From: a bacterium
GTDB lineage: Bacteria; SAR324; NAC60-12
Direction: 5' to 3'
Assembly (NCBI GenBank): GCA_965205865.1
Contig: CBDBHR010000026.1
Span: 32,001-96,000, forward strand
DNA length: 64,000 nucleotides
In this document: positions 13,318 to 51,629 of the stretch, piece by piece
Layout: each line of letters begins with the position of its first letter
Numbering within the stretch: the first letter of the stretch is position 1
Translations under genes and position numbers: made by a program
The notes under the pieces: model-generated
Databases searched by the model: none
The model's input: the letters and a program-made list of their open reading frames with translations, nothing else
Told to the model about the DNA's origin: nothing

Positions 13318-13836
13318 CAGGGAGGACTCCATTCAAAGCGAACTCCAAAATCGTGAAGCATTTTGAAGGTATTGTCCTATTCAACATTGAACTGCCAGCA
13401 CAAGTTGGGTATTGGCACTCTTCTTTACTTCTGGTTGGAATATTTCCTGAGTCACTACAATTGCGTCGTGAACCATGGCGTAGGCGGCGACCCACCCATC
13501 GGCCACAATGGCAAATTCGTCTTTTGCAGCCTGCAGGAATTGGTCATTGTGCTGGACCCATAACTGCATTTTAGAGAAAGCATCGACGACTTGTTGCTCA
13601 GCAGATGTTAAAAATAATTCTGTTGGCGCCTGACGCACCCAACTGGCTAACTCATCCCCATTCAGTATTTCGTTTCGGACTCGATCAATACTAAGCACTC
13701 GGCCTTGTTGAGAATAGTGTGTCAGGACATCCCAGAAACCCGGACACAGACTCAGAGGATAATAACTGCGATACGCTGCGATGAAAACATTTGTATCTAA
13801 TAAGTATGGTTTAATCAGAGAAATTTGAGACGTCAT
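13317..13836 (-). pseudogene. DUF4411 (PIN-like) protein with a damaged 3' end
   Basis: YLLDTNVFI...CPGFW and ADGWVAAYA motifs. The C-terminus (VPIPNLC...) is out of frame after ~13420 and contains an in-frame TAG. Confidence 0.75.
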
Positions 13837-14990
13837 AGCTCGATTTCCATCTTCTCCGGCATTGCTTCGAAGGTATCGCCGCGTAAGCCGGTGAGTCCGT
13901 ACGCCTCACGGTATTGTAGACGGCCCTCCCTGACCGCACGAACCACTGCAGCGCCAAAGCGAGGACCAATGCGCCATTTCTGAGTGTTCCAGAAATTTCC
14001 GTTACCCGCATTGCAAAGCTTTTGCTTGCTATGCCCTTCATGTCTTCTGATAGAAATCGAAGAAGGCTTGCTTGTCGATCAACTCGAGATCAAGAGCGCG
14101 ACGCGCGGCCACAAGAGAACTCACTTTGAATTGGAGTGCAATAGACTGATAAGGATTACGGGATTTCCTGGCAGTGGACCAGAAAGAGCGTAATTCATTC
14201 TCAGGAACAAGAAATTCTGCCGTAGCTTGATCACAGAACTGCTCCATGTGATGGGCTGGAGGCTGAAGATTCTCGAGACGCGAAACACCGTCCTTTCCAA
14301 CAAAAATGTGTGCCAACTCCTGCGCCAGTGTGAACATCTGGGCCGCTTTGAAATCGGCGGCATTGACAAAGATGAGTGGAGCATATTCATCTACCAGGGC
14401 GAAGCCTTGAAGTTCTTTAGGATTGAGCTTGCGATGCGTATTGTTTCCTACGATGCCATTGAAGACCACTAGTCCGCCAGCGTCTTCGGCATGTTCTCGC
14501 AGTTTCCAGAGCGCGCTGGTCCAACTGGGTTGATTGGAAAGCCCAATCTCTGGTAAGCTGGAGCGTCTCACCCATGGCCACCGCTACTTGCTTTGCGAAA
14601 AGAGTCCGGTCCATAGACCCCGACGAAACCCATTGGTTCAGTTCCATATTCGATGAGTTCATCTCGCATCCACAACTGACGACGCTGCATGAGATACACA
14701 GTCTCCAGCAGGTCGGGACTCGGATGCGGAGGCAGGTCATCGCTCCAGGTTCGAAAGTCGGTTATCGGCAGGCGGTCCTCGGGCGGCTCTGCAAAATACA
14801 AAAAGCCCAGAGGAGTATGGGTGCGCTGGGCCAGTTTGTCTGACTTGGGCAATGGTGATGCGGCCCGAACATTCCCACTCCGATGCGACTTCCGGCTTTA
14901 TCCGCAACTTGTGAGCCAACTCTTCCTGGTCGATTCCGGCGCGCTCAAGCGCCCATCGCAGAACTTCGGCGTTCCGATCGGATTTTCAGG
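13811..14990 (-). pseudogene. HTH + ImmA/IrrE Zn-metallopeptidase, fragmented
   Basis: Fragments in four frames (PLGFLYFAEPP; VFNGIVGNNTHRKL; FTLAQELAH, where HExxH is altered to QELAH). Confidence 0.8.
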
Positions 14991-15040: not shown

Positions 15041-15109
15041 TTATTCCTCGTCTGGTAATTCTACTCTTACATCATGGACGTCGAGCTTGCACGTGACCAG
15101 GTCGGCAAT
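15041..15109 (-). pseudogene. hsdS 3'-end remnant (IADLVTCKLDVH...LPDEE*)
   Basis: Matches the tail of the intact HsdS (IADVVTGQLEVR at ~17840-17872). Confidence 0.7.
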
Positions 15110-15660
15110 GCGTGTGGTATCCGACGTGTTGTGGAATTGATAAACAATGATTTTCCGCAGGATGTTTCGAGTGACACGGGCAGTCGTATCTTCGTCGGCC
15201 AGAGTGAGGAGTTGTGGAGCACGGTGTCCGGCTCCCGTTTCTTGCCAGTCATGAGGAGTAGCGTAATTTTTGTGAGAGAACCGGTAACGTTCATCGGCAA
15301 AAATTAAAGTGAAAGCTGTCTCCCGCAGCATAAACCAACCGGAACGAGTACTGAGTTTCGCCGGTATCGGTATGAATCGTCAGTTCGGCTTCTATCTCAC
15401 GACCTCTTGGCCGGACCATCGTGCAAAAGCATGCTGGCTCCCCCCTGTTGACTCACGTAAAGTTGAAGATTGTCGGTGGGTCCGCCAACATCCAACTCAT
15501 CATACGAAAGAAGGAAACAAAGTTGGACTTACCGGCGCCATTGGGACCGATGAGCACCGGTTAAGGATTTCGATACAGGCTTGAAATCTCCAGTCGGCCC
15601 CGCGCCTTCAATGTTTTAAATCTTGATTGAGGGTTATGCTATCGAGCCCGGGTTTTTCAT
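15110..15660 (-). pseudogene. AAA/ABC-type ATPase 5' fragment
   Basis: VLIGPNGAGKSNF Walker A near 15510-15552 and YQFHNTSD; broken by stops and frameshifts. Confidence 0.65.
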
Positions 15661-15762
15661 AATTGTCCTTCTCGATGACCCGGTTTCAGATAATCTTGCC
15701 TTTGATGAAACAAAGACTGCTGACTTCGGGCGCGTCCTGATCTTCGAAGACGCCGAGTGCAG

Positions 15763-15822
15763 CTCGTCGGGCAGGTTGGCCGCTGTCTCGCGTACGTCGA
15801 GCTTGCCTGTGACTACATCGGC
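15763..15822 (-). pseudogene. hsdS 3'-end remnant (ADVVTGKLDVRETAANLPDE)
   Basis: Matches the HsdS C-terminal consensus and is fused in frame to an unrelated fragment. Confidence 0.75.
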
Positions 15823-16233
15823 GTTGGCCCGCCCGTCAGGGAGCGGCACGTCCAGCAAATCAAAATATTTAGGGTAATCAAGCATGAGCAGAACATCCTC
15901 GTCGTTCACCTGTTCGACGATGACACCGTCTTGTCTGGTGGGCATACTCTCTTTTTTCCTCATTACTTTCAATCTCTTATGTCTCCAGCTACGGTTTCCA
16001 TTTCGAATCCGCCAGGACTTTGACTTCGTGACCGAAAACACCTTCTACCTTCCAGGTATCAACGCCTTGGAACCGTTCCGGAAACTGCTCGCATCATCCT
16101 CGAAATTCTCGAAAAGAAAGGATATCCGACGGCGCGCGGCTCCCTGTAGTTGACCTTGAATTCGTCCATTCGGTTTCATGCGACAACTTGCGCAGTTCAA
16201 ACCGACGAGATATTCGGTGGAACTGGAGTCCAT
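15823..16233 (-). pseudogene. AlbA_2/ATP-binding protein 5' fragments
   Basis: MDSSSTEYLVGL...HETEW and EDVLLMLDYPKYFDLLDVPLPDGR segments in different frames. Confidence 0.5.
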
Positions 16234-16422
16234 GTCGTCACCTCTTCAAGCATACTTTGTTGGAATCACCACTTCATTACTCCATGGTTTATACTTTTTT
16301 CAAAGATAAATCGGTAAAGGCGCATAAAAATAAAAGATATAAAACTATAAAAAACAGTTACTTATAAAGTCGATTATACCTGAATTATGCCAAAATTATG
16401 CTTTTTGCTCCTATTAATATTT

Positions 16423-16827
16423 TCAGGCATAATTCGAAATGGGCGATTTCCCCGGATACCAGCGAGCAGCTTTGGTGTTCCCGATTTTTTGGATCTGTCC
16501 ATTCATTCTCAAATCTTGAAGCAATTTCTGAACCTGGACATATGAAAGGGCTGGCTGGACCTGAACGAGTTCCTTCAACTGACTGCCTTCATTCCGATTG
16601 TCTTTAATGTGTTTCAGTAGCAACTCCTTATTCGTCTCGCGGTCCAACCCACGCTTGCGCGTATAGACCCCCGCCTTGCCAAGGTACCGGTAAAACCGCC
16701 GGGAGAGCAGCAGTCGTACGCCCCGCCCCCGTCCTACGCGCTCGATGATTCCCTGTTCCAGCAGATGATTAGCACTCAATCGGAGGTAGTCCGGAACATC
16801 TTGCTCGCGGTGGACGAGATCGACCAC
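16423..16827 (-). pseudogene. C-terminal winged-HTH fragment of an ATP-binding regulator
   Basis: GIIERVGRGRGVRLLLSRRFY...TRKRGLDRETNKELLL...GNTKAARW; the N-terminal domains are absent. Confidence 0.55.
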
Positions 16828-16892
16828 CAGTTAGTCGTGATGACCATTTTTAACCGTCGAGACATTGAATCTGTCTGTATCGCTATATTGTA

Positions 16893-17615
16893 TCATGATT
16901 GCGGTTCCCGTCTTACACTAAGTTGTCGATTTATATCAGACGTATTCATGAGTACCGAAATATCGCCAATTCTCCCAATATCAAGAGTAATGGGGTTGCA
17001 ACCCATGGTGCCAGTATCTATAGCGAGACGAAACTCTTTTTGGTATTCATACTCCTTGCGCTTAGTGAATATCGATTCAATTTCTGACTTTGCGGGTGGT
17101 GTGCCGACTTCAGCATCATAATATCTCACCAGCCCGCCACAGATTCCATACCCTCTTTTTTCAGCAGCGACTTTAACTCGCTTCAAAAACTCTCGAGTAT
17201 TTGTAATTACAACTGCATGCCTTCCGAGCTTTATGCAATCATCCGGTATTTCAAGTTGCTTTTTGAATGCGTGGACATTATCATCTGATATGCTTTGGAA
17301 GTCACCACTATGACCCGCATACATACAAAACACATTAATGTGATCAAACCATCTTGGGCGCATGATGATCGGAGCGGCAAACTCGTGCCCCGCCATTGTG
17401 ATTCTGCTAGATTCTCCAGTTTCTATATTTGTGGCTGTCAATTCAACTATTAAGCCATCTTTCTGGAGCATGATCGCACCTTCATCTTCATCTCTACGAC
17501 CGTCACGATCCTCGATTCTCTTAAAGTAGGAAAGCTTGTGTGCGTACAGCTTCCCCCTAACAAAATTGTCAGCGTATCTTGCTTCCTGAAAAACTTTCAC
17601 AAGGAAAATTATCAT
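16893..17615 (-). CDS. Hypothetical protein (defence-locus cargo)
   Basis: Intact 240-aa ORF with lower GC than the hsd genes; C-terminal KRKEYEYQKEFR motif. Confidence 0.75.
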   Translation of the reverse strand: MIIFLVKVFQEARYADNFVRGKLYAHKLSYFKRIEDRDGRRDEDEGAIMLQKDGLIVELTATNIETGESSRITMAGHEFAAPIIMRPRWFDHINVFCMYAGHSGDFQSISDDNVHAFKKQLEIPDDCIKLGRHAVVITNTREFLKRVKVAAEKRGYGICGGLVRYYDAEVGTPPAKSEIESIFTKRKEYEYQKEFRLAIDTGTMGCNPITLDIGRIGDISVLMNTSDINRQLSVRREPQS

Positions 17616-17749
17616 ACTTCTACTTCTTTTCTATTCGCTCGCAGATTCCTATGCATCGTTTTTCAGTAACCTTTTTTCAATTTGTTTGATCGAAAGTGTG
17701 GCGAGCACCACTCGCTCATCACACCGGTGACTGGCCAACGCATTCCATA

Positions 17750-19006
17750 TCATACGATCGATACGCCGTGCTCAAGCAGGTCATCTGGATTGTCTTCCAC
17801 AACGAGCGAATCGACTTCGGACATCGTTGCTACTTGGCGCACTTCCAGTTGGCCCGTGACCACGTCGGCAATCAAACGGGTGCGATATTCGCCCAGCAAC
17901 TCGATCTGGCGGCGGGCACAGTCGATGGCAGTATCAATGTCGGTAGTTATTTTGTCAAGATACTCTGCAATGGCCGCCTGCTCAGGGAAGGGAGGGACGG
18001 GGGCTAATCTTTGATGAGTATCTTCACGCCCTAGCCCGGGTATAGTTGAATCTTTTGTTACATCATCAAGCCTGAGCCAACCCAAGAGATAGAATAGCCA
18101 TCGCAAGTTATTTCTCGAATATCGCTCATCGACAAAGTATGTGGTGTCGATTGCGAATAAAGGTTCTTCAACAAAATTTACCTTGCCAAATGAACCCTTG
18201 CGGCCAATTACGATACACGGCGACATCGTGTTCGCAGAAGAATGGTTGCCAACAAGTCCATTTGAACCATAAACAGGCACATCGCCATCTGCTCGCATAT
18301 CAGCCGTGAGCGAGTCACCATAAGCAAAGTAGCAAATTGACTTCAGCCGTCGCACTTCCCAATGCGCCGGCACATCACCGAGCCACTCGACGCCGGAGGG
18401 ATTGAGGCGGACGTTGGGGTTGAGACCCCGGGTGACGGAACGGTGAATGAGGACCTGCTTCTGCTCCTCCAGCAGCTTGACCAGCTTCTGCCGGGCACTG
18501 ATGTACCGGCGAATACGCCCGTCAACAAAATCCAAGTAACGAACGATAGCCGCCTGCTCGGGGAGGGGAGGGACAGGGGCTAATCTTTGATGAGTTTCTT
18601 CACGCCCAAGCCCAGGTATAGCTGAATCTTTTGTTACATCATCAAGCCTGAGCCAATCCAAGAGATAGAATAGCCATCGCAAATTATTTCTAGAATATCG
18701 CTCATCGACAAAGTATGTGGTGTCGATTGCGAATAAAGGTTCTTCAACATAATTTACTTTGCCAAATGAACCCTTGCGACCAATTACGATGCACGGCGAC
18801 ATCGTGTTCGCAGAGGAATGGTTGCCAACAAGTCCATTTGAACCATAAACAGGCACATCGCCATCTGCTCGCATGTCAGCCGTGAGCGAGTCTCCATAAG
18901 CAAAGTAGCAAATTGACTTCAGCCGTCGCATCTCCCAATGCACAGGTACATCGCCTAGGATCGATACACCGGAGGGTTTGTAGGAGGGGTAAGTCTTCAA
19001 TTCCAT
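17750..19006 (-). CDS. hsdS: Type I R-M specificity subunit with two near-identical TRDs
   Basis: YKPSGV...GDVPxHWE, PP(L/F)PEQAAI twice, LIHRSVTRGLNP spacer and RTRLIADVVTG. Confidence 0.93.
   Translation of the reverse strand: MELKTYPSYKPSGVSILGDVPVHWEMRRLKSICYFAYGDSLTADMRADGDVPVYGSNGLVGNHSSANTMSPCIVIGRKGSFGKVNYVEEPLFAIDTTYFVDERYSRNNLRWLFYLLDWLRLDDVTKDSAIPGLGREETHQRLAPVPPLPEQAAIVRYLDFVDGRIRRYISARQKLVKLLEEQKQVLIHRSVTRGLNPNVRLNPSGVEWLGDVPAHWEVRRLKSICYFAYGDSLTADMRADGDVPVYGSNGLVGNHSSANTMSPCIVIGRKGSFGKVNFVEEPLFAIDTTYFVDERYSRNNLRWLFYLLGWLRLDDVTKDSTIPGLGREDTHQRLAPVPPFPEQAAIAEYLDKITTDIDTAIDCARRQIELLGEYRTRLIADVVTGQLEVRQVATMSEVDSLVVEDNPDDLLEHGVSIV
17973..18940. repeat. About 390-bp direct repeat (TRD duplication), offset 576 nt
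   Basis: 17973-18364 and 18549-18940 are nearly identical at the nucleotide level. Confidence 0.95.
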
Positions 19007-19078
19007 AGGCTACTTTTTAGCCCTTTTCAAGTAAGGATGGATGCTGAAGCCAACCTCCGATATATATGGTACTTAACA

Positions 19079-20488
19079 TCAAGATGTGCTTTCAACTTGA
19101 TCAATTTTATCAGGTCCAACCATTACTATGGGTCTTCCGTTAAGCAATGTGACGAATCCACTTTTAAAAATCTCATTGCCGAGATGAATTCCTTCAAGCT
19201 TCCCTTTTTCTTCATTTGTTAGAAAGAGGCATTCCACTTCAGAAAAAAAAGTCATATCTTTCAGAATCAAGGAATTCTGCGACAAACCAAACGCTGTTAC
19301 GGATGTCTTGATATTATAAACAGACCCTTTTAGGTTCCGATTTTCAAACGTGTATGACGGAACTCTGGATGGTTTACTCTGTTCTCCGATGTGCTGAGGA
19401 TTAATCAGGACGTACGGCTCACATTCGTTAATTGTCCCCCCTAAAACGACTCTTTCTCCCTCAAGTCCATAATAGCTTTCCACGTAATGCATATAAAATT
19501 CTGTGGTTATATCGTGCTCGTGTTGGTCAGAGTTAATAACAACCTTTACTCTACTGTGAGGATCATAGCTTTTAGGTATACATACTCGGCGAACTTCCCC
19601 TTCAATAATAGCCGTCGGGTTTCTAGCAGGATTAGTAGTACTGCTCTTTGCACCCTCTGAGTCCGTAATAATTTGGGTTGTAATTTTAAGCTTATACGGA
19701 GAATTCTGGCGAAACGAAGTGAAGGAAAAATCCAAAAGTAAGCGGGAAGCATCTAACAGAGCACCTATATTAATGGAGAGGGCGTCTTTCATCTCAGGGA
19801 TGTATCGCCACTTCTCGTAAGAATCTTTATAGGAATTCAGTAATTCTGTTAACGTTCCGTTAAAACGGCGTTCCGACTTCGACAGAGACGCCCACCGCTG
19901 TTCCAATTTTTGCCTATGTTTTTTCTCCAAGAGTTCGAATAAGACAATTGGATCATGAGTTTGCCAATGCGGACGTTTCACATTCGGGTTTTTTATGAGT
20001 TTGCCAAAAACTTCTAGTACAGCCTTCAAAGACAATTCCAGTGTGAATAGAGCGTGTTGTGTATAAGTCAGGGCCAATCCTATCCCAGCATCAGTAAACC
20101 AAAAATGGGGCTCTTTGTTCTTGAAATCAAACAACTTTCCAAGGTTGAAACCTGATATAGGTGCCAATCTTAGAGCTTCATAATACTTCTGCGCCGTGTC
20201 GTAAAAAGTAGTAATACCTGGTGTCTCAAAAATGACCGATTTTGGGTCCAAACCCAGACTCTTCACAAGTTTCATTTCCTGTTTCTTAAAATCTCTCTGA
20301 TTCCCTTCGTCATCCACAGCAACGATTGCATGAATGTACTTCCCGGAGATTGGGTTAATTGGGATATTTCCGTTATTACACTTCTTAATTTCATCAAAGC
20401 ATGTGGCTGCTTCCTTTAACTTACAATGTACGCCATGGTTAGGGATAGCAGCACATCTATAGAATGGACTAAATACCTCGTATGGCAT
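19079..20488 (-). CDS. Hypothetical protein with a HEPN-like central domain and a beta-rich (OB-like?) C-terminus
   Basis: Intact AT-rich 469-aa ORF; LELSLKA...THD...LF...WRY pattern resembles HEPN. Confidence 0.6.
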   Translation of the reverse strand: MPYEVFSPFYRCAAIPNHGVHCKLKEAATCFDEIKKCNNGNIPINPISGKYIHAIVAVDDEGNQRDFKKQEMKLVKSLGLDPKSVIFETPGITTFYDTAQKYYEALRLAPISGFNLGKLFDFKNKEPHFWFTDAGIGLALTYTQHALFTLELSLKAVLEVFGKLIKNPNVKRPHWQTHDPIVLFELLEKKHRQKLEQRWASLSKSERRFNGTLTELLNSYKDSYEKWRYIPEMKDALSINIGALLDASRLLLDFSFTSFRQNSPYKLKITTQIITDSEGAKSSTTNPARNPTAIIEGEVRRVCIPKSYDPHSRVKVVINSDQHEHDITTEFYMHYVESYYGLEGERVVLGGTINECEPYVLINPQHIGEQSKPSRVPSYTFENRNLKGSVYNIKTSVTAFGLSQNSLILKDMTFFSEVECLFLTNEEKGKLEGIHLGNEIFKSGFVTLLNGRPIVMVGPDKIDQVESTS

Positions 20489-20912
20489 TTTCTCATACCT
20501 ATTTTGTATTTTGGTTTACCAGTAATAATCTCAATCAGTAACTATAATGGTTCGTTAGATTTTACTTTTTGATGTCATCTTGACCGCAAGGAAAGATCTA
20601 TAAGATTCCTCACATTCACCCAGAATGACACATTTGTGAATGGGATACAATCTATCGAGCTATCTCAGGTATGGCTGAATGTATATCAAAACCAACGACA
20701 ACTACTGTGTTTTTCATCAGAGATGAGAGATTGTCCGTTGTCGCGGTACCTTGAGAAACAGCCGGTGCCAGCCCCGTATTCTGCGAGATATCTTTTATAT
20801 TTCTTTGGTTTCTATTCGTTATTTGCATCGCTGTGTCTCTATGCTTAGAATTGACGCTGATCATGAACGGCATCACCGACGACTCCCGGTTGAATTTCGA
20901 CTTTCTGACGAC

Positions 20913-21011
20913 TCAATGGTTCGATATTATCTCCCAATGCGCCGACACGTCGTGGAGGCGCTCGACGATGGAGGACTGGTAGGCGGGACAGGGAGCAACA
21001 AATTGAATCAT
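20913..21011 (-). pseudogene. hsdS 5'-end remnant
   Basis: MIQFVAPCPAYQSSIVERLHDVSAHWEI resembles HsdS YPSYKPSGV..LGDVPxHWE. Its ATG overlaps the upstream TGA (ATGA). Confidence 0.65.
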
Positions 21012-21540
21012 GACGTTTTTCTGGGTTTATATTCTCGGATCTTGTTAATCAATTCCTGAAGTTTCCCCGTTTTTTCAGATGCCGCAACAAACTTCGAGTA
21101 CGCCGAAAAAGCGTTCTGGATCAGTTCATCGTAGGTGACAATCCTGATCGAATGGGGTCTCAAAGATTCCTCGTCCCTTTTTCTCTCATCTAGATCTTGC
21201 CACCCCCTTGGTAGTTTACCAACGATACAAATTGTCTCAAGAGGAGTTGTCCCCTCCCCCAACTGGTTGAGTTTATTCCGAACGGCATTTATGTACCGGC
21301 GAACCTGACTCTCTATGTCCGTTTTTGCTAACTGACGGTTTGCTCGTTTTAATTCGACTATTACGTGTGACGCCATCACTCTTTTGTACCGGATATCAAC
21401 TCTGTACTTTATGTCCTTCTGAATACCGTCCACAACCGCTTGTACGGTCTCTTCCATATTGGCGTATTGAGTTGCGCGTTCCCATGCTGGATCAAGCAGC
21501 CACAAATGATCGAAAATATACTGCTGTAACACTTTCTCTA

Positions 21541-22719
21541 GTGTATTGCCTGTTTAATACATTGTATTATTGGTCATTTGGTAGACAGGTTTGAGTTTGT
21601 TGATAATTTCTTCGGCAGTTTTAGTCCAGACATAGGGTTTTGGGTTGCGATTGTGTGTCTCGATGTAACTATGGATGGCTTCGGTCAACTCGAGCACGCT
21701 TTTGAAGGCGCCTCGTCGAATCCGTTCTGCAGTGATCTTGCCAAAAAAGCGTTCCACCATGTTCAGCCATGAGGAGGAAGTAGGAATGAAATGCGGGTGA
21801 AATCGCGGGTGTTTTTTGAGCCATTCTTTCACCTTAAGATGTTTGTGGGTGGCGTAATTGTCCAGGATCAAGTGTACCTGCAGTTGCTTCGAGGTAGTCT
21901 TGTCAATAAGACGCAGGAAGCGCAGATACTCTTGGTGTCGGTGCCGTTTTTCACAGCGAGCGAGCACTTCCCCTGTCTGCGTATTCAAAGCAGTAAACAG
22001 ACAGCAGGTGCCATGACGGATATAATCATGAGTTCTGGTGCCATTGCGCCCTGGTTTCAGTGGCAGACCTGGCTGGGTGCGATCGAGTGCCTGGATTTGT
22101 GATTTCTCATCGACGCTCAAGACCAGCGCTTTCTCAGGAGGATTCATGTACAAACCGATGACATCTTTCAGTTTCGCAGTGAAATGCTTATCATGCGACA
22201 ACTTAAATGTTTTTTCCAGATGAGGCTTGAGGCGATGGGCCTTCCATACTTTACCGACGGTTGTCTTGCCTACGCCAACTGCCTTGGCCATCGATCGCGT
22301 GCTCCAATGGGTACGGTCCTCAGGCTTCTCTTCAATGGTTTTCTTCACAATCTCCTCGATTTTATCCGCTCCATAAATGCGTGTCCTGCCAGGCCGCGGA
22401 TCATCATTGAGACCTGTTATTCCTTTTTCAACAAAGCGCCGTCGCCACTTTCCAACGGCATTACCGCTGGTTCCAAGCGTTTTGGCAATTTCTTGATTCT
22501 TAAGGCCATCAGCAGCCAACAGGATGATGCGCGCACGACGAGTGTCTCGCATCGCTCCGGTATGACGGCGTGCGGTTTTGCCCAATTCATCCCGTTCTTC
22601 CCGGGTCAGTTTTATACTTGGTGCTTTTCTCATGCTGTCTCCATATATGCAAAAAAAAGGACAGCTCGTAGTATAGCAAACCAAGGATTTTTTTACACAT
22701 TAATAAAAGAGCGACACAC
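21541..22719 (-). mobile_element. IS630-family insertion sequence
   Basis: Ends GTGT...ACAC flanked by a TA duplication (21539-40 and 22720-21). Confidence 0.9.
21554..22633 (-). CDS. IS630 transposase
   Basis: SVDEKSQIQALDR, ILDNYATHK and SSWLNMVERFF motifs. Confidence 0.95.
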   Translation of the reverse strand: MRKAPSIKLTREERDELGKTARRHTGAMRDTRRARIILLAADGLKNQEIAKTLGTSGNAVGKWRRRFVEKGITGLNDDPRPGRTRIYGADKIEEIVKKTIEEKPEDRTHWSTRSMAKAVGVGKTTVGKVWKAHRLKPHLEKTFKLSHDKHFTAKLKDVIGLYMNPPEKALVLSVDEKSQIQALDRTQPGLPLKPGRNGTRTHDYIRHGTCCLFTALNTQTGEVLARCEKRHRHQEYLRFLRLIDKTTSKQLQVHLILDNYATHKHLKVKEWLKKHPRFHPHFIPTSSSWLNMVERFFGKITAERIRRGAFKSVLELTEAIHSYIETHNRNPKPYVWTKTAEEIINKLKPVYQMTNNTMY

Positions 22720-24217
22720 TAGCGCTTCGTCTTCAACTTGATCTTGGAGCCGTTTGATGACATTCAGTCGCTCTTGAACTATTTCGTGGTAACGCATCGC
22801 TTCAATGGCATCAATATCAGACAGATACTCAAGAAACACATCCAAATTGGATGCGTCAATGGTATCCAAAATTTTCAGAGCATCGTTCATCTTGAGCGTT
22901 TCAAAAGCAAGTATCCCGTTGGCATACAAACCTGGCTTGTGTGCCTCGTCTACTCCCGATTGGTCGATTTCGGCAAAGATCTTCTTTGCAGTTTTCTTCA
23001 GTGATTGTGGTCTCAGTCCTTCGTACCATTCTTTGATATGAGGGTTGGAAGACAGGGCCATATCCAGTCCTTTCTTCTCCTTGAGCTTATTGGTTTCCGT
23101 CCAAATGTACCGGAGTTCCCTTCCTAAGAAATTTTTGACCGCGAGATAACGCGGGTCATCCTCGGAAATCCTTTGGCGGCTGGAAGTGGCAATGTCTTGC
23201 TCATCATCGTCGTCGAGGAAGTCGGCGTGAATTTCGCCATAGATGTATTTGGTGATCATTCCACCGAGGCGATATTCCTGTAGAATATCCTCTTGAGCCA
23301 CTTTACCCCGCACGACAACCGTGATTTTGTTCAGATTGTCGTCTTGTTCGTTGTCGCCCTGCTTCCTGTCGTCCAGATCGTTGGAACGACGGGCGATGGC
23401 GATCCAGCCGCTGATCTCGTATTCGCCTTCCTGGATGGCGTTGCCGCGCAAATCAAAGCGATTATCTCGGGTATAGGACAACCTTTCGCGGTTGTCTTCG
23501 TCTTTGTCCAAATTTTTACAGTGTTGGGCGTAATCGTATTTCCCGTATTGGAAAAGGAATCGAGCTTTGTGAAAATAATCTCTGTCAGCAAAAGTTATCT
23601 TTTCGTCATTAACAAAGACGTGAAAACCCGCTGAATCTTCGATAATACTGAATCTCCGGGCGATTCTTTTTTTGAGGCCATTTATTGAAGCTTGCGTCAG
23701 CCGTAGTTTCTTCAAATCCGTAATTTTAATAATGGTCCCATGTGATGGAATATCCACATCGAAGGTGACGGATTCCGGCTCGTATTGTTTCGGAGATGAT
23801 GGATCTTCGCTATGTATCGCGTCCTTGATTTTTTCGGCATCCATTAAAAAGGATACTTTCTCACTACCTTCTTTACGGCTATAGACAGAGATTTTATTTG
23901 CGATGGAGAACAGAGATAGTTTCCCAATGCCTTTCCTACCCATCGGTTTTCTGCCGCCGGGCGTGCGGAAATCAGGCATGTTCCTTTTCTGGTATCCGAC
24001 AAGCAGGTACTTGTCATTGATGTCGGTCCGATCCATTCCATGACCATTATCGGAAACTGCGATCGATTTCTGCTCAACGTTGAAATCAATCTTAACCTCG
24101 GTCGCGTCGGCGTCCCAAGCGTTGGCAATCACTTCCGCGATCACCGCCGGGGTATTGCTATACAGGTTGAGTCCCAGATGGTTGAGGACATTCAAACTGA
24201 TGCTCATTATGTACCTG

Positions 24218-25261
24218 CTATCGGACATTCGCTCCCTCCATGATGGATTTTCCAATCGCTTCAGCAAGTTTGACCGGCACCGCGTTGCCAATATGCCGGG
24301 CCATCTGGCGAATGACGAGTGGTTTGCCTTTCTCGATGAGTTTATACTTGCGAGGAAAAGTTTGTAGCAGAGCCGCTTCCCGGACGGAAATCGACCGATG
24401 TTGTCGAGGGTGTCCAAACCGCCCGGTACTGTAATAGCAAAATTGCGTGGTGATAGTGGGTGCCAAAGCATTCCAGCGCATTCGTCCGTAGGATGCCGGA
24501 TAATATGCCTTCCGGTGGCATTCGTTGATGATGTCCTTCTCCCAATCCTTCCAGGACCCGCCCGGTTTTGACTGGAGAATTCGCTGGCGGTTTTTTGGGG
24601 ACAACGGCAACGTGGCGTGAGCGGGGTCATCGGGCGAGGTCTGTCCGTCTTCAAGTGTGGGCAAACTTTGGATAAAGTCGGCAACGGTTGTTTTCTCCCC
24701 CCTTGGACAGGGAAGAGAAATCACGCCCAATCCGGATGCCAGCAGCACCAGGCGCTTCCTGTTTTGCGGAACGCCGTAATTCGCGCACGGCAAAATATCA
24801 TAGTCGTACTGGTAACCCAAGAGGTTCAACGTTGAGAGCAATTCGTCAAATGCCTTCTGTTTGACGAGTCCGGGGACATTTTCCATCGAAATCAAGTCGG
24901 GAGTTCCCTCTTTGACAAGGCTGGTGAATTTTCTGACTAAGGAGTAGTTATCCACTTTGGAATTTTGCGTCCTTCGGGTATGCGCGGAGAAGGGCTGGCA
25001 AGGAGCGCAACCCACCATCACCGTAACATCCGCGTCCTTGTAATATGGCGCAATGTCGAGGAAGTGAATGCCGCAAACATCGGTAGCGATAAATTCGGAT
25101 CCATGGTTGTTCGTCTCGTACGCATACCGACATGATGGATCAATGTCAAAACCCGCCTTGACGTCTATGCCAGACATACCGAGTCCATGAGTCAATCCAC
25201 CGATTCCACAAAAGAGATCTACAGCGTGAACTCTCCACAAGCCGTTGTTTTTTTTACGCAT
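24218..25261 (-). CDS. DNA (cytosine-5) methyltransferase, M.HgiDII-like
   Basis: DLFCGIGG, GCAPCQPFS, MENVPG, YGVPQNRKR, GRFGHP and IGNAVP motifs. Confidence 0.92.
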   Translation of the reverse strand: MRKKNNGLWRVHAVDLFCGIGGLTHGLGMSGIDVKAGFDIDPSCRYAYETNNHGSEFIATDVCGIHFLDIAPYYKDADVTVMVGCAPCQPFSAHTRRTQNSKVDNYSLVRKFTSLVKEGTPDLISMENVPGLVKQKAFDELLSTLNLLGYQYDYDILPCANYGVPQNRKRLVLLASGLGVISLPCPRGEKTTVADFIQSLPTLEDGQTSPDDPAHATLPLSPKNRQRILQSKPGGSWKDWEKDIINECHRKAYYPASYGRMRWNALAPTITTQFCYYSTGRFGHPRQHRSISVREAALLQTFPRKYKLIEKGKPLVIRQMARHIGNAVPVKLAEAIGKSIMEGANVR

Positions 25262-25312
25262 TGAGTTCTCTCCGTTACCAACCGATTACCTAATCCACGT
25301 CTTTCACAATTT

Positions 25313-25366
25313 TCAGCCGCCGACAATGTCGCCCAACAAACCATTGGTCTCCCGTTCCAGTGTCAT
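25313..25366 (-). pseudogene. hsdM 3'-end remnant
   Basis: MTLERETNGLLGDIVGG* compared with the true HsdM end LTLEQETEGLLNEIIGKV*. Confidence 0.7.
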
Positions 25367-25404
25367 TTAACTTTCAAGGCTAAATCAGGAAATTTTTTAC
25401 TTGA

Positions 25405-25761
25405 TTGGGCTTCGAACATTTTTGTAAATTTTTCACTAGGATAGAAGCAGAAAAAAATCCAGACAAATCTCTGTACAATGGAATTACAAGGCCAACCAAA
25501 ATAGAGGAGTTCATCATGTTTTCTCTTCCTCTTGAATTTCCTATCGTTTTTGATTCAATTAAACAACAGTTTTCTGTTTCGGGTTGGACCACCGCGCATA
25601 CCATGGTCCTGGGAGAGCAAAACTATGCCAGGGGAATCATGAAGTTTCCTCGGCTCCAAAAACTGATGCCCAAGGCTGGTATCGTGATTCAGTCCGTTCC
25701 AAAGGCAAACGCTTTGTCAAATGCCCGGGATCAGAATGTGCTATTCTTAGTTTATGCATAA
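25405..25761 (+). CDS. Hypothetical protein (probable start 25516)
   Basis: Open frame with GAGGAG before ATG 25516; no recognisable motif. Confidence 0.35.
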   Translation: MGFEHFCKFFTRIEAEKNPDKSLYNGITRPTKIEEFIMFSLPLEFPIVFDSIKQQFSVSGWTTAHTMVLGEQNYARGIMKFPRLQKLMPKAGIVIQSVPKANALSNARDQNVLFLVYA

Positions 25762-25869
25762 GGGAAATGGTTCAATTTTTGCCCATTGTCCTGAGACCTT
25801 CGATTTTTTCGACGCTTTATCGACAAGGATTCCACCAGGAAAAGCATTTTATTGATAAGGAGAGTTGAA

Positions 25870-26262
25870 ATGGTGACGCGCCCACACATGCGGAAGGTTA
25901 GATCAAAGGAAACGAAGCCAGAACGCGCACTAAGAAAGCTTATCTGGTCGATGGGATATCGAGGATACAGGAAGAATTGCGGGAATCTGCCTGGAAGGCC
26001 TGATGTGGCGTTTACCCGCCGCAAGCGCGCAATCTTTCTTCATGGGTGTTTTTGGCATGGACATTCATGCAAAGCAGGTAGGAACGTTCCGCAAACTAAC
26101 ACCACGTATTGGATACCGAAATTACGAAGGAATAAAGAAAGAGATCGTGATGACCTTAAAAAATTGAAATCGGAGCATTGGCGGGTCATGGTGGTTTGGG
26201 AGTGTGAATTGGGCGAGCTTGAGCAAGTTAAGTCCGGACTGTCCAAATTTTTACGTGAATAG
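25870..26262 (+). CDS. vsr: Very short patch repair endonuclease
   Basis: TKPE, LPGRPD, FLHGCFWHGH and VVWECE motifs; adjacent to the C5 methylase. Confidence 0.93.
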   Translation: MVTRPHMRKVRSKETKPERALRKLIWSMGYRGYRKNCGNLPGRPDVAFTRRKRAIFLHGCFWHGHSCKAGRNVPQTNTTYWIPKLRRNKERDRDDLKKLKSEHWRVMVVWECELGELEQVKSGLSKFLRE

Positions 26263-26340
26263 TATATAGTTTCCCCCAAATCCCAATAAATGGAGCATCA
26301 ATGCAAGCATGATGACGAAATGGATTCTCTGAGCAACGTT

Positions 26341-26907
26341 TCAGGATCGGACTTTTCCCTGCCAACCGCCTTTACATTTACCACTCCAAATTTTTTCAAA
26401 CGGATGCCGTCGGTTGTCTGGGTATGGTGTCATTTTCCTTCTCTGAAACGCTTGGTGAATCCACTCGCGAATGTCCTCCCTTTGGTCTGTCCAGTCATAG
26501 ACGCAGGCATAGGGCGCCCTTTCCTTGCAGTTATCCGCGAGTCTTGGTGGTATCAGGTGTGGATCATACATTGTTCTTCCAAAATCCGGATGTTTGGGCA
26601 ACATGATACCCAACAATCCACATCTGGGATTTTTTTTCGTGGCTCTCAAACTGGCGCCTATCTCCCAATCCACGTGCATCCGTTTCCAGGTACAGGGGCC
26701 AATCAGCACAACCGTCACGGTTACTTCGGCGATGTAGTGCTCACGAATTCTTTGAAAAATCGCCTCCACGTCAAGGTTATTGATTTCCCCGATTTTGACG
26801 GACCTGTCCAGCATTTCGTCCTTCATCATTTTGACGAATTGGTTTTTGTATTTTTGATCCCCATGGTGAAAACTGATGAATACTTTGTGTTTTGGGATTT
26901 GGTCCAT
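26341..26907 (-). CDS. TIR-domain protein (MTH538/ThsB-like)
   Basis: HKVFISFHH, VTVVLIG.CTW and VDWEIGASL with the catalytic-type Glu. Confidence 0.85.
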   Translation of the reverse strand: MDQIPKHKVFISFHHGDQKYKNQFVKMMKDEMLDRSVKIGEINNLDVEAIFQRIREHYIAEVTVTVVLIGPCTWKRMHVDWEIGASLRATKKNPRCGLLGIMLPKHPDFGRTMYDPHLIPPRLADNCKERAPYACVYDWTDQREDIREWIHQAFQRRKMTPYPDNRRHPFEKIWSGKCKGGWQGKVRS

Positions 26908-27037
26908 CTTCGCTCTCCTTCAACCCGTTCCAAGTCGGTCAAGTCTTCCGGGCCGGCAATCTCTGCCAGCATGCGATTGTAGTTTCGTAAATCTTGCTGC
27001 AGCGTTCAGAGAGGGCGACTCATCCATGGCCCTCGGG

Positions 27038-29020
27038 TTACACTTTTCCGATGATCTCGTTCAGCAACCCCTCGGTTTCCTGTTCCAGCGTCAGAATGTC
27101 TCCCCGGATCTCCTCCAGCGTACGTAAAGGCTGCGGCTTGTAGAAGTGGCGGGTGAAGCTGATCTCGTAGCCGGTCTTGATGCTGTCTGCGACATACCAG
27201 GCATCCGGCGCGTGGGCCAACACCTCGCGTTGCAGGAAACTCTCTACGCTTTTTTCCAGGAGTGGCACCTGCTCGCTGTCTCGCAGATCGGGGTCGGGTT
27301 CGTACTCGACCACGGCGGAACGGCCGGCGATTAAGGTCTCGAACAACCCACGCATGGGGTCGGGTGCCGCGCCTTTCTCGTGAATCTTTTTGATGACCGG
27401 CAGGGCGGTCTCCGAGCAGCGTGATCCCTCTTTGAGTATTTTGATCTCCCTGGCGCCGTAGGCGCGTTCGGAGTCGATGCCTTCAAGGCGTAACGGACGC
27501 TCGATCGTGACTTTCCAATATCCGAACGCTTCGTTTGGATAGATTTTCGACTGTTCGGTTTCCTCGAACTTCAGAAAAGTATCGCAGATACGCTGGATAT
27601 CTGCCGCTGACAACTCGCAGTTCTTTTTACCAAGATTCTTGCGTAGTGGTTTGAACCAACGGGTCGCGTCGATGAGTTGGATTTTGCCCCGGCGTTGCGC
27701 GGGCTTACGGTTACCAAGCATCCAGATATAGGTGGCAATGCCCGTGTTGTGGAACATGTTCAGAGGCAAGGCGACGATGGCCTCCAACCAGTCGTTTTCG
27801 ATGATCCAACGTCGAATATTGCTTTCCCCCTGACCCGCATCACCAGTGAACAATGACGAACCATTATGGACTTCCGCAATCCTGCTGCCGAGGTGCGAAT
27901 CCCGCTTCATCTTGCTCAGCATGTTGGCCAGAAACATCATCTGGCCGTCGCTGGAACGCGTAACGAGGCTGTATTCCGGATCGCCGGCATGCTTGATCAG
28001 AAAGCGGTGGTCGGACATCTCTTTTTTTCCTCCCATCCGCTCGAGTTCCGTTTTCCAGGACTTTCCGTAGGGTGGATTGGAAAGCATAAAGTCGAACTCG
28101 CGTGCCGGGAACGCGTCTCTGGACAGGGTCGAGCCGAATTTCATGTTCTCGGCCTCGCTCCCCTCCCCTTTGAGGATGAGATCCGCCTTGCTGATGGCGA
28201 AGGTTTCGGGATTGATCTCCTGCCCATAGAGGTGAACGGATGCTTCCTTTCCGTATTTCGTGGCAAGCCCGGCCAGTGTTTCTCCGGCAACGGTCAGCAT
28301 CCCGCCGGTGCCACAAGCGCCGTCATAGACGAGGTAGGTCCCGGAGCGGATCTTTTCCTTAATGGGCATGAAAATCAGATGGGCCATCAGTTTTACGACA
28401 TCACGGGGCGTGAAGTGCTCACCGGCTTCCTCGTTGTTCTCTTCGTTGAAACGCCTGATCAACTCCTCGAAGATGGTCCCCATCGAATGGTTGTCGAGGC
28501 CGGGAAGACGCGGGGAACCGTCCCGGGACAAGATGGGTTTGGGGCTCAGATTGATCGAATTGTCGAGGAATTTTTCGATGAGGAATCCGAACACGTCGGC
28601 TTCGATCAGGGTGGGGATTTGATTACGGAACTTGAACTTGTCGAGGACCTCCTGAAGGTTCGCTGAGAAACCATCCAGATAGGTTTCGAAATCGGTTTTG
28701 AGTTGCTGTTGCCTGGATCGGTTGGAGAGATCGCGCAAGCAAAAAGCCGAGGTGTTGTAGAATGCTTCGCCGGATGCCCGACATAACGCTGCGTGCTGAT
28801 GGACGACGCCTGCCGCGTCGAGTTGCTGCTTCATTCTGAGCACAGCCTCTTTCGTCGGTTCGAGAACCGCATCCAGACGCCGAATAACCGTCATGGGCAG
28901 AATGACGTCCCGATACTTGCCCCGCACGTAGACGTCGCGCAACACATCGTCGGCTATATTCCAGATAAAGTTGCTGATATTCAAGTTGCTTTCCACTGTT
29001 CCTACCGCGATTCTCTCCAC
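27038..29020 (-). CDS. hsdM: Type I R-M methyltransferase subunit (likely start GTG 28996)
   Basis: AGEHFTPRDVV, YDGACGTGGML and SNPPYG motifs. Confidence 0.95.
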   Translation of the reverse strand: MERIAVGTVESNLNISNFIWNIADDVLRDVYVRGKYRDVILPMTVIRRLDAVLEPTKEAVLRMKQQLDAAGVVHQHAALCRASGEAFYNTSAFCLRDLSNRSRQQQLKTDFETYLDGFSANLQEVLDKFKFRNQIPTLIEADVFGFLIEKFLDNSINLSPKPILSRDGSPRLPGLDNHSMGTIFEELIRRFNEENNEEAGEHFTPRDVVKLMAHLIFMPIKEKIRSGTYLVYDGACGTGGMLTVAGETLAGLATKYGKEASVHLYGQEINPETFAISKADLILKGEGSEAENMKFGSTLSRDAFPAREFDFMLSNPPYGKSWKTELERMGGKKEMSDHRFLIKHAGDPEYSLVTRSSDGQMMFLANMLSKMKRDSHLGSRIAEVHNGSSLFTGDAGQGESNIRRWIIENDWLEAIVALPLNMFHNTGIATYIWMLGNRKPAQRRGKIQLIDATRWFKPLRKNLGKKNCELSAADIQRICDTFLKFEETEQSKIYPNEAFGYWKVTIERPLRLEGIDSERAYGAREIKILKEGSRCSETALPVIKKIHEKGAAPDPMRGLFETLIAGRSAVVEYEPDPDLRDSEQVPLLEKSVESFLQREVLAHAPDAWYVADSIKTGYEISFTRHFYKPQPLRTLEEIRGDILTLEQETEGLLNEIIGKV

Positions 29021-29823
29021 GACCTGTCCGACATGAGTTTACGGAATGGCGATGCTGCGGAATCGACTTGCCTGACGTCTCCGTCCATGACGACAAAGAA
29101 ATTGAATTCCTCGTGAATACATCCTGAAGGGCAATCTCCCCACGCGTTACGAAACACAAAAAACCAATTCTCATTCACCTTCAACGTTTCTATGTCAGAG
29201 CCGTCCGACAAGAATGCTTCGGGTTCGACGTATCGAATCCCCGAAACTGTCGAATACGCCTCAATTGCTGCCGGAATGTTCAACCCTTCGCGAAAACAAA
29301 AGATGACGATCCCGATCGAATCGAAAATTTTTATGCCCCGCAATTGAAGCTTCGCGTTCAAGGTATCGAATTCCGTATCACCCGTAAGCAACGTCCCAGT
29401 TCTGCCATGATTGGGCAACACATCTTTGATAGCCCGCATCAGGGGAGGTTCCAGGCCGAGGATGAGCATGGCCGGAACATATGCCGCTCGCGCATGAATG
29501 AGCGAGACCTGCGGATGGGCGTCACGGATCAAGAGTAGAATTCGTCGGATTTCCTCTTCAAGCTCATCCCGCTGCCGGATATCGAACAATAACTCGCTGC
29601 CATTACGTTGGATCATCCTGTCCGCAAGTATGGCGGCGTCAGAACGGTCGACGGTAGGGAGCGGGCAGGGTTTTGTCCCGACAACGTCCGTTTCACGAGC
29701 GCTGCGCAAAGACGCCGGATCAGTCCCGACTTTTTCGTTGGCAGCGATCAGCGGGCATGCAATTACGAAGAGTAAGAACATGCCGGAGATAGTGATGTTG
29801 ATCATTCGTAAACCGTCTTTCAT
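29002..29823 (-). CDS. Hypothetical exported protein
   Basis: Hydrophobic signal-peptide-like N-terminus; WGDCPSGC motif. Confidence 0.65.
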   Translation of the reverse strand: MKDGLRMINITISGMFLLFVIACPLIAANEKVGTDPASLRSARETDVVGTKPCPLPTVDRSDAAILADRMIQRNGSELLFDIRQRDELEEEIRRILLLIRDAHPQVSLIHARAAYVPAMLILGLEPPLMRAIKDVLPNHGRTGTLLTGDTEFDTLNAKLQLRGIKIFDSIGIVIFCFREGLNIPAAIEAYSTVSGIRYVEPEAFLSDGSDIETLKVNENWFFVFRNAWGDCPSGCIHEEFNFFVVMDGDVRQVDSAASPFRKLMSDRSWRESR

Positions 29824-45002: not shown

Positions 45003-45092
45003 TAGACATCACTTCTCCTTTATTTTTAGTTTGATTGAAGGAATAAAAATTCATTAATTTGATTGCATTCATAACTTCTCCTTATATTTATT

Positions 45093-46266: not shown

Positions 46267-46337
46267 TTCGACAAAGCTTCGATTTCCTAAAGCAAAGGCT
46301 GTGGACTCTTGATAAGAAAATTTTATTTAAGTCACCG

Positions 46338-47324: not shown

Positions 47325-47333
47325 GCATCACCA

Positions 47334-49761: not shown

Positions 49762-49821
49762 AATCATATTTTTATGGAATCCTTTGTTGACGTGATTACG
49801 GAATTTCCGTATATTTAGATT

Positions 49822-51611: not shown

Positions 51612-51629
51612 CCCCTACTCGAAACACAG

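Follow-up and report, generated by a model that had tools for sequence, protein, structure and literature searches.

The window analysed here is a stretch of 64,000 nucleotides from a bacterium of the SAR324 lineage (NAC60-12; GenBank assembly GCA_965205865.1, contig CBDBHR010000026.1, positions 32,001 to 96,000 of the forward strand), and all coordinates are counted from its first letter. It carries a type I restriction-modification (R-M) operon that is, judged by its sequence, intact-looking and predicted to be functional, and whose gaps are filled with whole and broken defence genes. Short remnants of the ends of hsd genes lie at the borders of this cargo. The locus is probably a recombination mosaic of live and dead layers, assembled by homology-anchored illegitimate recombination with related operons and not from integron-like cassettes.

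The resident genes hsdM (27038-29020, minus strand, 660 aa; Pfam N6_Mtase 4.6e-53 and HsdM_N 9.3e-23, PADLOC MTase_I 5e-239), hsdS (17750-19006, minus strand, 418 aa; Pfam Methylase_S in 2 stretches, PADLOC Specificity_I 1.7e-92) and hsdR (10273-13332, minus strand, 1019 aa; Pfam HSDR_N, SWI2_SNF2, ResIII and T1R_D3-like, PADLOC REase_I) are three uninterrupted open reading frames (ORFs), and the three proteins carry the domains of a type I R-M system in both Pfam and PADLOC. The hsdM-hsdS gap measures 8031 bp and the hsdS-hsdR gap 4417 bp, a cargo total of ~12.4 kb that agrees with the ~12 kb given between intact hsd genes by an earlier reading of the same DNA (the first-pass annotation). In transcription order, the hsdM-hsdS gap holds a TIR gene, an oppositely oriented vsr, a gene for a C5 methylase, a split restriction enzyme gene, a protease/small-ORF remnant and a 469-aa gene; the hsdS-hsdR gap holds a 240-aa gene, the end of a 550-aa-type AlbA_2 gene, the start of a second AlbA_2 gene, the start of a HEC-01A-like ATPase gene, an ImmA/IrrE pseudogene and a DUF4411 gene. 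All genes of the locus except vsr are on the minus strand, so that defence-type, non-hsd genes of mostly one orientation are embedded between the hsd genes. Besides the split restriction enzyme gene and the ImmA pseudogene, at least six cargo genes are left only as fragments.

Profile hidden Markov models (HMMs) of the Hsd termini were built from intact genes in related loci, without the window's own (54 HsdM tails, 58 HsdS tails, 41 HsdS heads and 14 HsdR heads), and were searched against the six-frame translation of the window (2797 segments). Decoys consisted of 1,420,101 bases of reversed DNA, corresponding to 22 window-equivalents. Apart from the intact genes, the hsdM-tail, hsdS-head and hsdS-tail profiles matched exactly four sites in this search, each on the minus strand. 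The hsdM-tail remnant, MTLERETNGLLGDIVGG*, lies at 25313-25366 (match 25319-25363, HMM positions 52-66, 13.3 bits, E 0.007) and the hsdS-head remnant at 20913-21011 (match 20928-20993, HMM positions 5-26, 15.7 bits, E 8e-4). The hsdS-tail remnants, numbered 2 and 3, begin with ADVVTGKLDVRETAANLPDE at 15745-15822 (HMM positions 24-49, 33.5 bits, E 2.8e-9) and consist of IADLVTCKLDVHDVRVELPDEE* at 15041-15109 (match 15044-15109, HMM positions 23-44, 17.1 bits, E 3.5e-4), respectively. Best decoy scores were 12.2 bits for the hsdM tail, 15.1 bits for the hsdS head and 7.4 bits for the hsdS tail, and all four remnants outscored every decoy.

The first-pass annotation had named six peptides as hsd scars, all of which translate as written at their coordinates, and had taken scores no better than shuffled sequence as evidence against them; each of the four sites above scored higher than any reversed-DNA decoy. 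Its hsdM tail ahead of the C5 methylase (13.3 versus 12.2 bits) and its hsdS head (15.7 versus 15.1 bits, and a DNA repeat) were recovered, as was the ATGA coupling of that head to the stop of the restriction enzyme (ORF coordinates 21008 and 21011). The two extra hsdS tails that it placed near a GCCGA motif were recovered at 33.5 and 17.1 bits, and the DNA alignment agrees, with the GCCGA position being the start of both. Its two weaker hsdM-tail candidates were rejected: LLIEIITGK (20515-20541) scored -0.5 bits, and MLAEIAG (26950-26972) gave no hsdM-tail match at E<=10 and was reassigned to the remnant of a lost TIR-partner gene. When the window's own Hsd proteins were compared pairwise with the window by tblastn, a search that it had proposed for the Hsd termini, the four remnants ranked first among non-self matches, but only with E 0.18-14; these values were too weak alone, and profiles with decoys were therefore used.

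Two further comparisons were made with intact proteins and at the DNA level. With the hsd genes masked, 192 intact Hsd queries from relatives matched tail 2 (34 queries), tail 3 (7 queries) and the hsdS head (5 queries); no internal fragment of hsdM, hsdS or hsdR was found in the masked window with these 192 proteins, the three hsdS remnants being the only matches. The DNA of the hsdM-tail remnant is ~75% identical to the resident hsdM tail. The repeat finder returned the hsdS-head block as direct repeat family D2 (3 copies, 43 nt, 72-79%) and the hsdS-tail block as a direct repeat (3 copies, 29 nt, 79-83%), with remnant 3 in family D3; the longest identical run among repeats of the window is ~13 bases. 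Tail 2 is 83% identical to the hsdS tail of one related locus (L065) versus 43% to the resident tail, and 52/58 and 54/58 related-locus tails are nearer to the two hsdS-tail remnants than the resident hsdS tail is. Since both remnants are nearer to the tails of other loci, this comparison assigns them to other hsdS alleles and not to local duplication.

A longer version of remnant 3, extended upstream into an hsdS helix (tblastn 37-40%, E ~1e-3), was rejected, as the same residues fit HEC-01A better (E 2.9e-9). Away from the locus, an hsdR-head-like peptide, SGDKTGEREALGHGGWRVGDPLDPDRDLC (37580-37666, minus strand), scored 16.4 bits against a best decoy of 9.3 bits; it is out of frame within an ABC permease gene, 8.5 kb from the operon. 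This match, to a profile built from 14 sequences, is probably a chance or composition effect.

Each hsd remnant has a native neighbour on one side and foreign sequence on the other. The hsdM-tail remnant is followed by 51 bp and then by the C5 methylase gene. The ATG of the hsdS head overlaps the restriction-enzyme stop (ATGA), and the head runs into the last 33 codons of the protease gene. Tail 2 is fused to residue 198 of the second AlbA_2-type gene, and tail 3 is fused to ~residue 170 of the HEC-01A-like ATPase and followed, after about 50-190 bp, by the ImmA gene. At this latter joint the HEC-01A and hsdS-tail matches share 1-4 residues, as a microhomology joint would predict. Other joints cut cargo: the TIR-partner gene is reduced to 30 codons right behind the hsdM stop, and the 550-aa AlbA_2 gene has lost ~415 5' codons beside the 240-aa gene. 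Altogether, the locus contains ~10 novel joints, four of them with hsd termini; apart from these four, at least five joints cut cargo genes and not hsd termini.

Joint positions were then read from the profiles for the window and its relatives together. Remnants of hsdM tails start at profile positions 1, 2, 13, 35, 48, 48 and 52; hsdS-head remnants end at 16, 19, 24 and 26, and hsdR-head remnants at 17 and 49. Starts of hsdS-tail remnants fall at 23, 24 and 26 (three well-supported cases) and at 39 (a marginal one). The first-pass annotation had asked whether crossover positions are constant. Only the three well-supported hsdS-tail starts cluster, a small sample in which detection limits can produce the clustering; the hsdM-tail starts and the hsdS-head and hsdR-head ends vary.

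Related loci were fetched with HsdM (554 pattern matches, of which 536 were confirmed and the best 80 kept) and are referred to below by number (L002, for example). Across these best 80 of 536 confirmed loci, HsdM is 53-81% identical to that of the window, and the family spans Dehalococcoidia, Latescibacterota, Planctomycetota, Pseudomonadota, Actinomycetota and one archaeon. Both hsdM and hsdS were held by 61 loci, and 51 were usable for the hsdS-hsdR gap. Gaps of >250 bp were present between hsdM and hsdS in 41/61 loci and between hsdS and hsdR in 30/51, with at least one such gap in 39/51. A Pfam scan of gap ORFs (150/155, the five shortest being left out) returned cargo of defence or toxin-antitoxin type: ThsB-like TIR, GmrSD, DarT with Macro, SIR2 with HerA, KAP NTPase, DUF1016, AlbA_2, HepT, HipA-like, DUF433 and others.

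The cargo families of the window recur between hsd genes in these relatives, which bears out a check proposed in the first-pass annotation, and they do so mostly in the same slot. The TIR family is present in 7/80 loci (6 in the hsdM-hsdS gap, 1 after hsdR), and the 160-aa TIR partner lies in the hsdM-hsdS gap in 2/2 loci (L035, L046). The protease with its 79-aa ORF is between hsdM and hsdS in the 1/1 locus that has it (L026), and the AlbA_2 type is directly after hsdS in 3/3 loci (L004, L005, L074). An intact HEC-01A and B pair occupies the hsdS-hsdR gap of L065. The homologue of the 240-aa gene in L002 sits directly after hsdS and is itself directly followed by an hsdS-tail remnant. The ImmA and DUF4411 pair was found in three different slots (L045, L069, L076).

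Orphan hsd termini of the same kind were found in 4/61 related loci. In L002 these are hsdM tails (four), hsdS heads (two), an hsdS tail and an hsdR head; in L059 a single hsdS head with two hsdM tails; in L012 an hsdM tail; and in L065 an hsdR head with a marginal hsdS tail. Some of these are arranged as head-then-tail joints, with an hsdS head followed by an hsdM tail in L002 (twice) and L059, and an hsdR head followed by the marginal hsdS tail in L065. In L002 the similarity of the remnants continues into downstream cargo. Left out of this count were L035, L039 and L045 (hsdM split by insertion or frameshift), L063 (a decayed locus), matches in L021, L040, L070 and L077, the hsdR head of L005 and the true-start hsdR heads of L002 and L059 (gene starts or short genes at contig ends), the hsdR head of L012 (11.1 bits, inside hsdR), an opposite-strand hsdR head of L035 (12.8 bits), and marginal matches in L005, L014 and L026. 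No orphan-terminus match was found in 736,923 bases of operon-flanking DNA, versus 21 short-segment matches inside hsd spans. In L035 (11674-16840), one of the excluded loci, the body of the split hsdM ends at ~residue 512 and its last 67 codons lie 5 kb downstream, behind an IS240-type transposase gene and an N4/N6 methylase gene.

Recombinase genes were sought in the 19 ORFs of the locus and in 31 ORFs of >=130 aa elsewhere in the window. No tyrosine or serine recombinase or integrase was found among them, only DDE and Y1 transposases; the statement of the first-pass annotation that no recombinase gene is visible therefore stands for tyrosine and serine recombinases in the scanned ORFs and fails for transposases, one of which (DDE, IS630-type, 21554-22684) is inside the locus, with four more transposase families at 43-53 kb. 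An Rfam scan of 9000-31000 matched no family, though no search aimed at structured attC sites was made. The locus resembles an integron in that accessory genes, most of them pointing the same way, form a one-directional array at a single site and short repeats mark several of the unit borders. It differs in having no integrase among the scanned ORFs (no IntI-type tyrosine recombinase was found beside the array), variable joints without fixed-position cassette borders, truncated units, one inverted gene, and no structured attC-type sites found in the general Rfam scan.

From the remnants and truncated cargo of the window, together with relatives in which its cargo recurs slot by slot and remnants of the same kind are present, we infer a recombination pathway, a direction and order of events, and a selective constraint, as follows. 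Related type I operons would move between phyla, and on entry of such DNA into a cell the resident hsd genes would be the sole homology available. One incoming end would recombine legitimately within an hsd gene; the other, located either in cargo without homology or in the outermost codons, first or last, of the next hsd gene, would be joined illegitimately, by homology-facilitated illegitimate recombination or by a comparable crossover, unequal or illegitimate, between two loci of this type. Each event would add donor cargo and leave a displaced hsd end or a truncated cargo gene beside older cargo, and later deletions and the IS630 insertion would erode the older layers. As long as hsdR is active, selection would remove events that destroy hsdM or hsdS, and one intact hsd set would therefore always stay, and the hsdM-hsdS and hsdS-hsdR gaps would serve as dumping and exchange grounds for defence genes.

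The observations fit this account in several respects. Internal hsd fragments are absent and the cargo is mostly slot-faithful, which argues that exchange is confined to the gaps, with the hsd genes on either side as its guides. The variable joint positions, the truncated cargo, the inverted gene, the lack of a recombinase among the scanned ORFs and the lack of a long identical run argue against a site-specific, integron-like system. The proposal of the first-pass annotation that modules from other type I loci have been stacked here is supported by the hsdS tails of other alleles, by the cargo recurring between hsd genes and by the orphan termini in relatives. The integron-like array that it drew from the stacking is not supported, given the variable joints, the at least five cargo-cutting joints, the inverted vsr and repeats that share at most ~13 identical bases.

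Several points weigh against the recombination mosaic. The margins over the best decoy are narrow for the hsdM tail (13.3 versus 12.2) and the hsdS head (15.7 versus 15.1). Three hsdS-tail starts fall within four codons, in the middle of the most-conserved block EYRTRLIADVVTGKLDVR, where random joints predict otherwise; ascertainment can produce such clustering, in that shorter remnants would be undetectable and longer ones would recombine legitimately, and, resting on three cases, this explanation is where the account is weakest. Remnants occur in only 4/61 relatives, and cargo must therefore mostly be exchanged in another way or without leaving a scar. The remnants in L002 and L059 are 83-93% identical to the resident hsdM tail, which local duplication would fit too. 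The position of vsr, the usual functional partner of the methylase, beyond the hsdM-tail remnant is left unexplained by a simple layer model. Any of the joints may, finally, stem from a later deletion and not from illegitimate recombination.

Deletion is central to one alternative, the decay of several complete tandem type I operons of which hsd ends and cargo were left. We consider this unlikely. Deletions from the hsdS or hsdR head of one operon to the hsdM or hsdS tail of the next are expected to yield head-then-tail joints, and the locus is otherwise decayed as well (IS630, pseudogenes, fragments); however, the interiors of hsdM, hsdS and hsdR, which are the largest targets, have left no fragment in the window, the twelve-odd remnants of the window and its relatives are without exception short (maxima of 67, 26, about 50 and 49 codons in the four terminus types), and the scenario requires a minimum of four operons of one family in tandem. 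The same head-then-tail joints (twice in L002, once in L059, marginally in L065) are expected from a circularised inter-hsd segment, and hence from an integrase-free cassette array in which units of hsd tail and cargo excise as circles at direct repeats, re-integrate by single crossover and stack. Direct terminus repeats do bracket the cargo, three hsdS-tail remnants start at nearly one codon, and the 240-aa gene of L002 is placed between an hsdS tail and an hsdS-tail remnant. Yet a single illegitimate crossover between two loci gives head-then-tail joints too, hsdM-tail starts are spread over positions 1 to 52 and head ends differ as well, and at least five joints of the window fall within cargo genes. 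The repeats (72-83% over 29-43 nt, longest run ~13 nt) now offer too little for efficient RecA crossover, and neither a tyrosine or serine recombinase in the scanned ORFs nor an Rfam match in 9000-31000 was found; a cassette array of this kind therefore seems rather unlikely. A stronger form would make the hsd ends true crossover hot spots, with tail-cargo-head units excising as circles and integrating at the matching block of related type I operons. The joints of L002, L059 and L065 would then be fossil circle junctions, and the whole a recombinase-free, cross-phyla network of defence cassettes; we regard this as improbable.

Two other explanations were given little weight. That the short peptides are not hsd-derived and resemble hsd termini by chance is very improbable, and for the hsdS remnants largely refuted. 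The pairwise tblastn values of just 0.18-14, the closeness of two of the four profile scores to the best decoy, and the off-locus hsdR-head-like match (16.4 bits), which shows that such profiles can mislead, speak for chance; against it, all four remnants exceed every decoy in 22 window-equivalents, all are on the operon strand at cargo borders, repeats exist at the DNA level, two remnants are matched by 34 and 7 independent HsdS queries, and relatives give 0 matches in 737 kb of flanks versus 21 within hsd spans. Scarcely credible is a store of silent hsdS pieces for phase variation by shufflon- or inverton-like specificity switching. Extra hsdS pieces do lie beside a complete hsdS whose recognition half seems to have been duplicated recently (95%, 300 nt), but they are direct and not inverted, no inverted repeat ties them to hsdS, they hold 20-28 conserved residues and no target-recognition domain, and there is no site-specific recombinase among the locus ORFs; the hsdM-tail and hsdR-head remnants of relatives would moreover be useless for such a switch.

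That type I operons can harbour defence genes is known from published work. A catalogue exists of such genes nested in type I R-M, BREX, DISARM and Hma systems (Payne, Hughes, Fineran and Jackson 2024, bioRxiv 10.1101/2024.01.29.577857). As in the window, defence-type genes are nested there between hsd genes on the same strand, and several cargo families of the window match candidate models of that work (HEC-01A, PDC-M50B); as far as its searchable main text goes, that preprint describes what is embedded and not the route, and the words 'recombination', 'remnant', 'truncated' and 'hsdS' are absent from it, whereas the locus described here also contains remnants of hsd termini and numerous cargo genes that are cut short. 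Extra ORFs lying among hsdR, hsdS and hsdM are likewise a regular feature of type I families in the rlo and mlo genes of Campylobacter (Miller et al. 2005, as cited in PMC5183652 and PMC11411939) and in TgvAB within the type I operon of Vibrio cholerae VPI-2 (PMC11411939); these are single cargo layers, and the portions of these sources consulted mention no hsd-terminus remnants. No description of hsd-terminus remnants at cargo borders or of stacked units was found in the literature searched, which left most subscription journals out of reach.

Precedents for parts of the process are available. Recombination at conserved repeats that flank the target-recognition domains lets these domains reassort and move inside hsdS (Furuta et al. 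2011, PMC3077401). That process, as described in the text consulted, likewise uses conserved head, central and tail blocks as recombination substrates, and the hsdS halves of the window are 95% identical; it swaps domains inside the gene, whereas the blocks reported here are outside the gene and beside unrelated cargo. A unit of evolution that covers the 3' portion of an ORF, the adjoining spacer and the 5' portion of the following ORF was described for a tandem paralogue cluster (Tsuru and Kobayashi 2008, PMC2568036), and here too the exchanged unit would reach from the end of a conserved gene to the beginning of its neighbour; that work deals with lipoprotein paralogues of a single species, between which there is no foreign cargo.

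Homology-facilitated illegitimate recombination was reportedly described by de Vries and Wackernagel in 2002 in transformable bacteria. It is said to combine one homologous anchor with a nearby illegitimate joint, a gain of foreign DNA and a loss of some resident DNA, which is the likeness to the pathway proposed here; it differs in that, to our knowledge, it has never been linked to hsd genes as anchors, and there is no sign here of DNA uptake by the organism of the window.

Nesting in multi-gene defence systems is used to discover new systems, and the route of entry is unexplained in the texts searched. The present locus and its four relatives provide a fossil record of displaced hsd ends and of cargo cut at joints, with the same cargo families recurring in the same slot in operons of different phyla. 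If the proposed pathway is true, conserved hsd genes would be portable homology arms through which incoming defence genes are guided to a resident operon without a dedicated recombinase. This would explain why embedding is common in the family (39/51 relatives), why embedded genes are co-oriented, and how a type I operon turns into a small defence island. Orphan hsd termini could serve as a practical genome-wide marker with which such events are dated and counted.

The cargo of the hsdM-hsdS gap begins, directly behind hsdM, with the last ~30 codons of a 160-aa TIR-partner gene whose 5' end is gone (26913-27002, minus strand; tblastn with L035 and L046). This stretch, LQQDLRNYNRMLAEIAGPEDLTDLE, contains the MLAEIAG peptide and aligns to residues 131-160 of 160 in L035 (77%, E 1.5e-9) and to residues 130-155 in L046 (69%). 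It is followed by a ThsB-like TIR gene with an intact ORF of 188 aa (26341-26907, minus strand; Pfam ThsB_TIR 1.4e-16, PADLOC ThsB and PDC-M50B). In relatives the neighbour of the TIR gene is the 160-aa gene or a PDC-M50A-type gene, and no ThsA-type domain was found in the locus by Pfam or PADLOC, so that a Thoeris system is represented by the ThsB-like TIR only. The TIR cargo is, judged by these neighbours, probably half of a two-gene candidate system whose other half has been lost from the window. In L012 (12952-13966), the gene upstream of the ThsB-like TIR matches PADLOC PDC-M50A (E 3e-24), and TIR genes match PDC-M50B weakly.

A vsr gene for a very-short-patch repair endonuclease (25852-26262, plus strand; Pfam Vsr 4.3e-26) and a gene for a C5 cytosine DNA methyltransferase of 347 aa (24218-25261, minus strand; Pfam DNA_methylase 1.3e-55) come next. 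The accompanying restriction enzyme, of the BbrUII/HgiDII family, is in two parts on the minus strand: an N-terminal part (22720-24228; NCBIfam NF050001 positions 1-482 of 659, 7.6e-161; HATPase_c_3) and a C-terminal part (21008-21532; NCBIfam NF050001 positions 485-659, 1.7e-41). They are separated by an IS630-family element (21538-22722, minus strand, with approximate ends read by eye) whose transposase ORF (21554-22684) matches Pfam DDE_3 and HTH models; no terminal inverted repeats were found for it by the repeat tool or by a scripted search. As a type II R-M system, this pair therefore has an intact methylase and an enzyme interrupted by IS630 between profile positions 482 and 485.

Next to the hsdS-head remnant, the C-terminus of a ClpP-like SDH protease (with stops) and a homologue of a 79-aa ORF occupy 20697-20916 on the minus strand (tblastn with L026), the former aligning to residues 305-337 of 338 (58%, E 6e-7) and the latter to residues 2-51 (46%, E 9e-12). 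The last gene of this gap encodes a 469-aa protein of an unnamed family (19079-20488, minus strand), which has 108 relatives at E<=1e-3, of ~466 aa, many in Chloroflexota and Dehalococcoidia records. Its AlphaFold2 model (mean predicted local distance difference test score 82.9) shows a helical N-terminal half and two tandem C-terminal OB folds; Foldseek matches (Teb1, RPA, SSB, PriB) cover the C-terminal OB folds only, and the protein atlas gave no usable match. The designation of this gene as 'HEPN-like' in the first-pass annotation was dropped, no match being found in Pfam, PADLOC or NCBIfam and the fold search returning only those OB folds.

The resident hsdS, between the two cargo blocks, has two near-identical target-recognition halves. 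The repeat finder returned an internal direct repeat of 300 nt at 95% identity (17970-18269 and 18546-18845), which points to duplication or conversion inside the gene in recent times and to a recognition site that is symmetric.

Downstream of hsdS, the 240-aa gene (16893-17615, minus strand; L002 homologue E 3.9e-55) matches only hypothetical-protein clusters in the protein atlas. It is followed by the last 134 codons of a ~550-aa AlbA_2 and HATPase_c_4 gene whose 5' end is gone (16423-16827, minus strand; 80-92% to the C-termini of PF04326 and PF13749 proteins), and by the decayed N-terminal part, ~residues 16-198, of a second AlbA_2-type gene of the ~500-aa type (15829-16198, minus strand; tblastn with L004, L005 and L074). 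Residues 16-40 and 154/164-198 of the latter were aligned, the second segment at E 2e-9 to 1e-8. A possible DUF433-like piece was noted at 15992-16147 (E 3e-4 to 8e-4). Beyond tail 2 lie the decayed N-terminal ~170 codons of an ABC-type, HEC-01A-like ATPase gene (15110-15569, minus strand; PADLOC HEC-01A 2.9e-9 on ORF 15041-15331), with a Walker-A remnant that contains an in-frame stop (15513-15569). Beyond tail 3, an ImmA/IrrE-type pseudogene (14035-14897, minus strand; Pfam Peptidase_M78) is broken by an in-frame stop and ends early. It aligns in two segments, residues 33-154 and 163-320, to a 390-aa protein of L069, and the stop falls between them; its partner, a DUF4411 (PIN-like) gene (13381-13836, minus strand; Pfam DUF4411 3.8e-36), precedes hsdR.

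No RNA family was matched by Rfam in 9000-31000, and no tRNA either. Promoter-like sites numbered 19 versus 19.1 expected, and terminator-like sites 11 versus 17.3 expected. Outside the locus, a cluster of transposase genes at 42215-53158 comprises DDE_Tnp_1_4 in two pieces, IS1595-type, DUF4096 (IS4/IS5 type), IS200-type Y1 and DDE_Tnp_1 genes, and a solute-binding protein gene beside it matches the first half of its Pfam model only. A 273-aa ORF with a hydrophobic N-terminus (29002-29823), which matched nothing in Pfam, PADLOC or NCBIfam, shares 19 bases with the start of hsdM. At the other end of the operon, recC, recB and recD (1285-10175) directly adjoin hsdR on the opposite strand.

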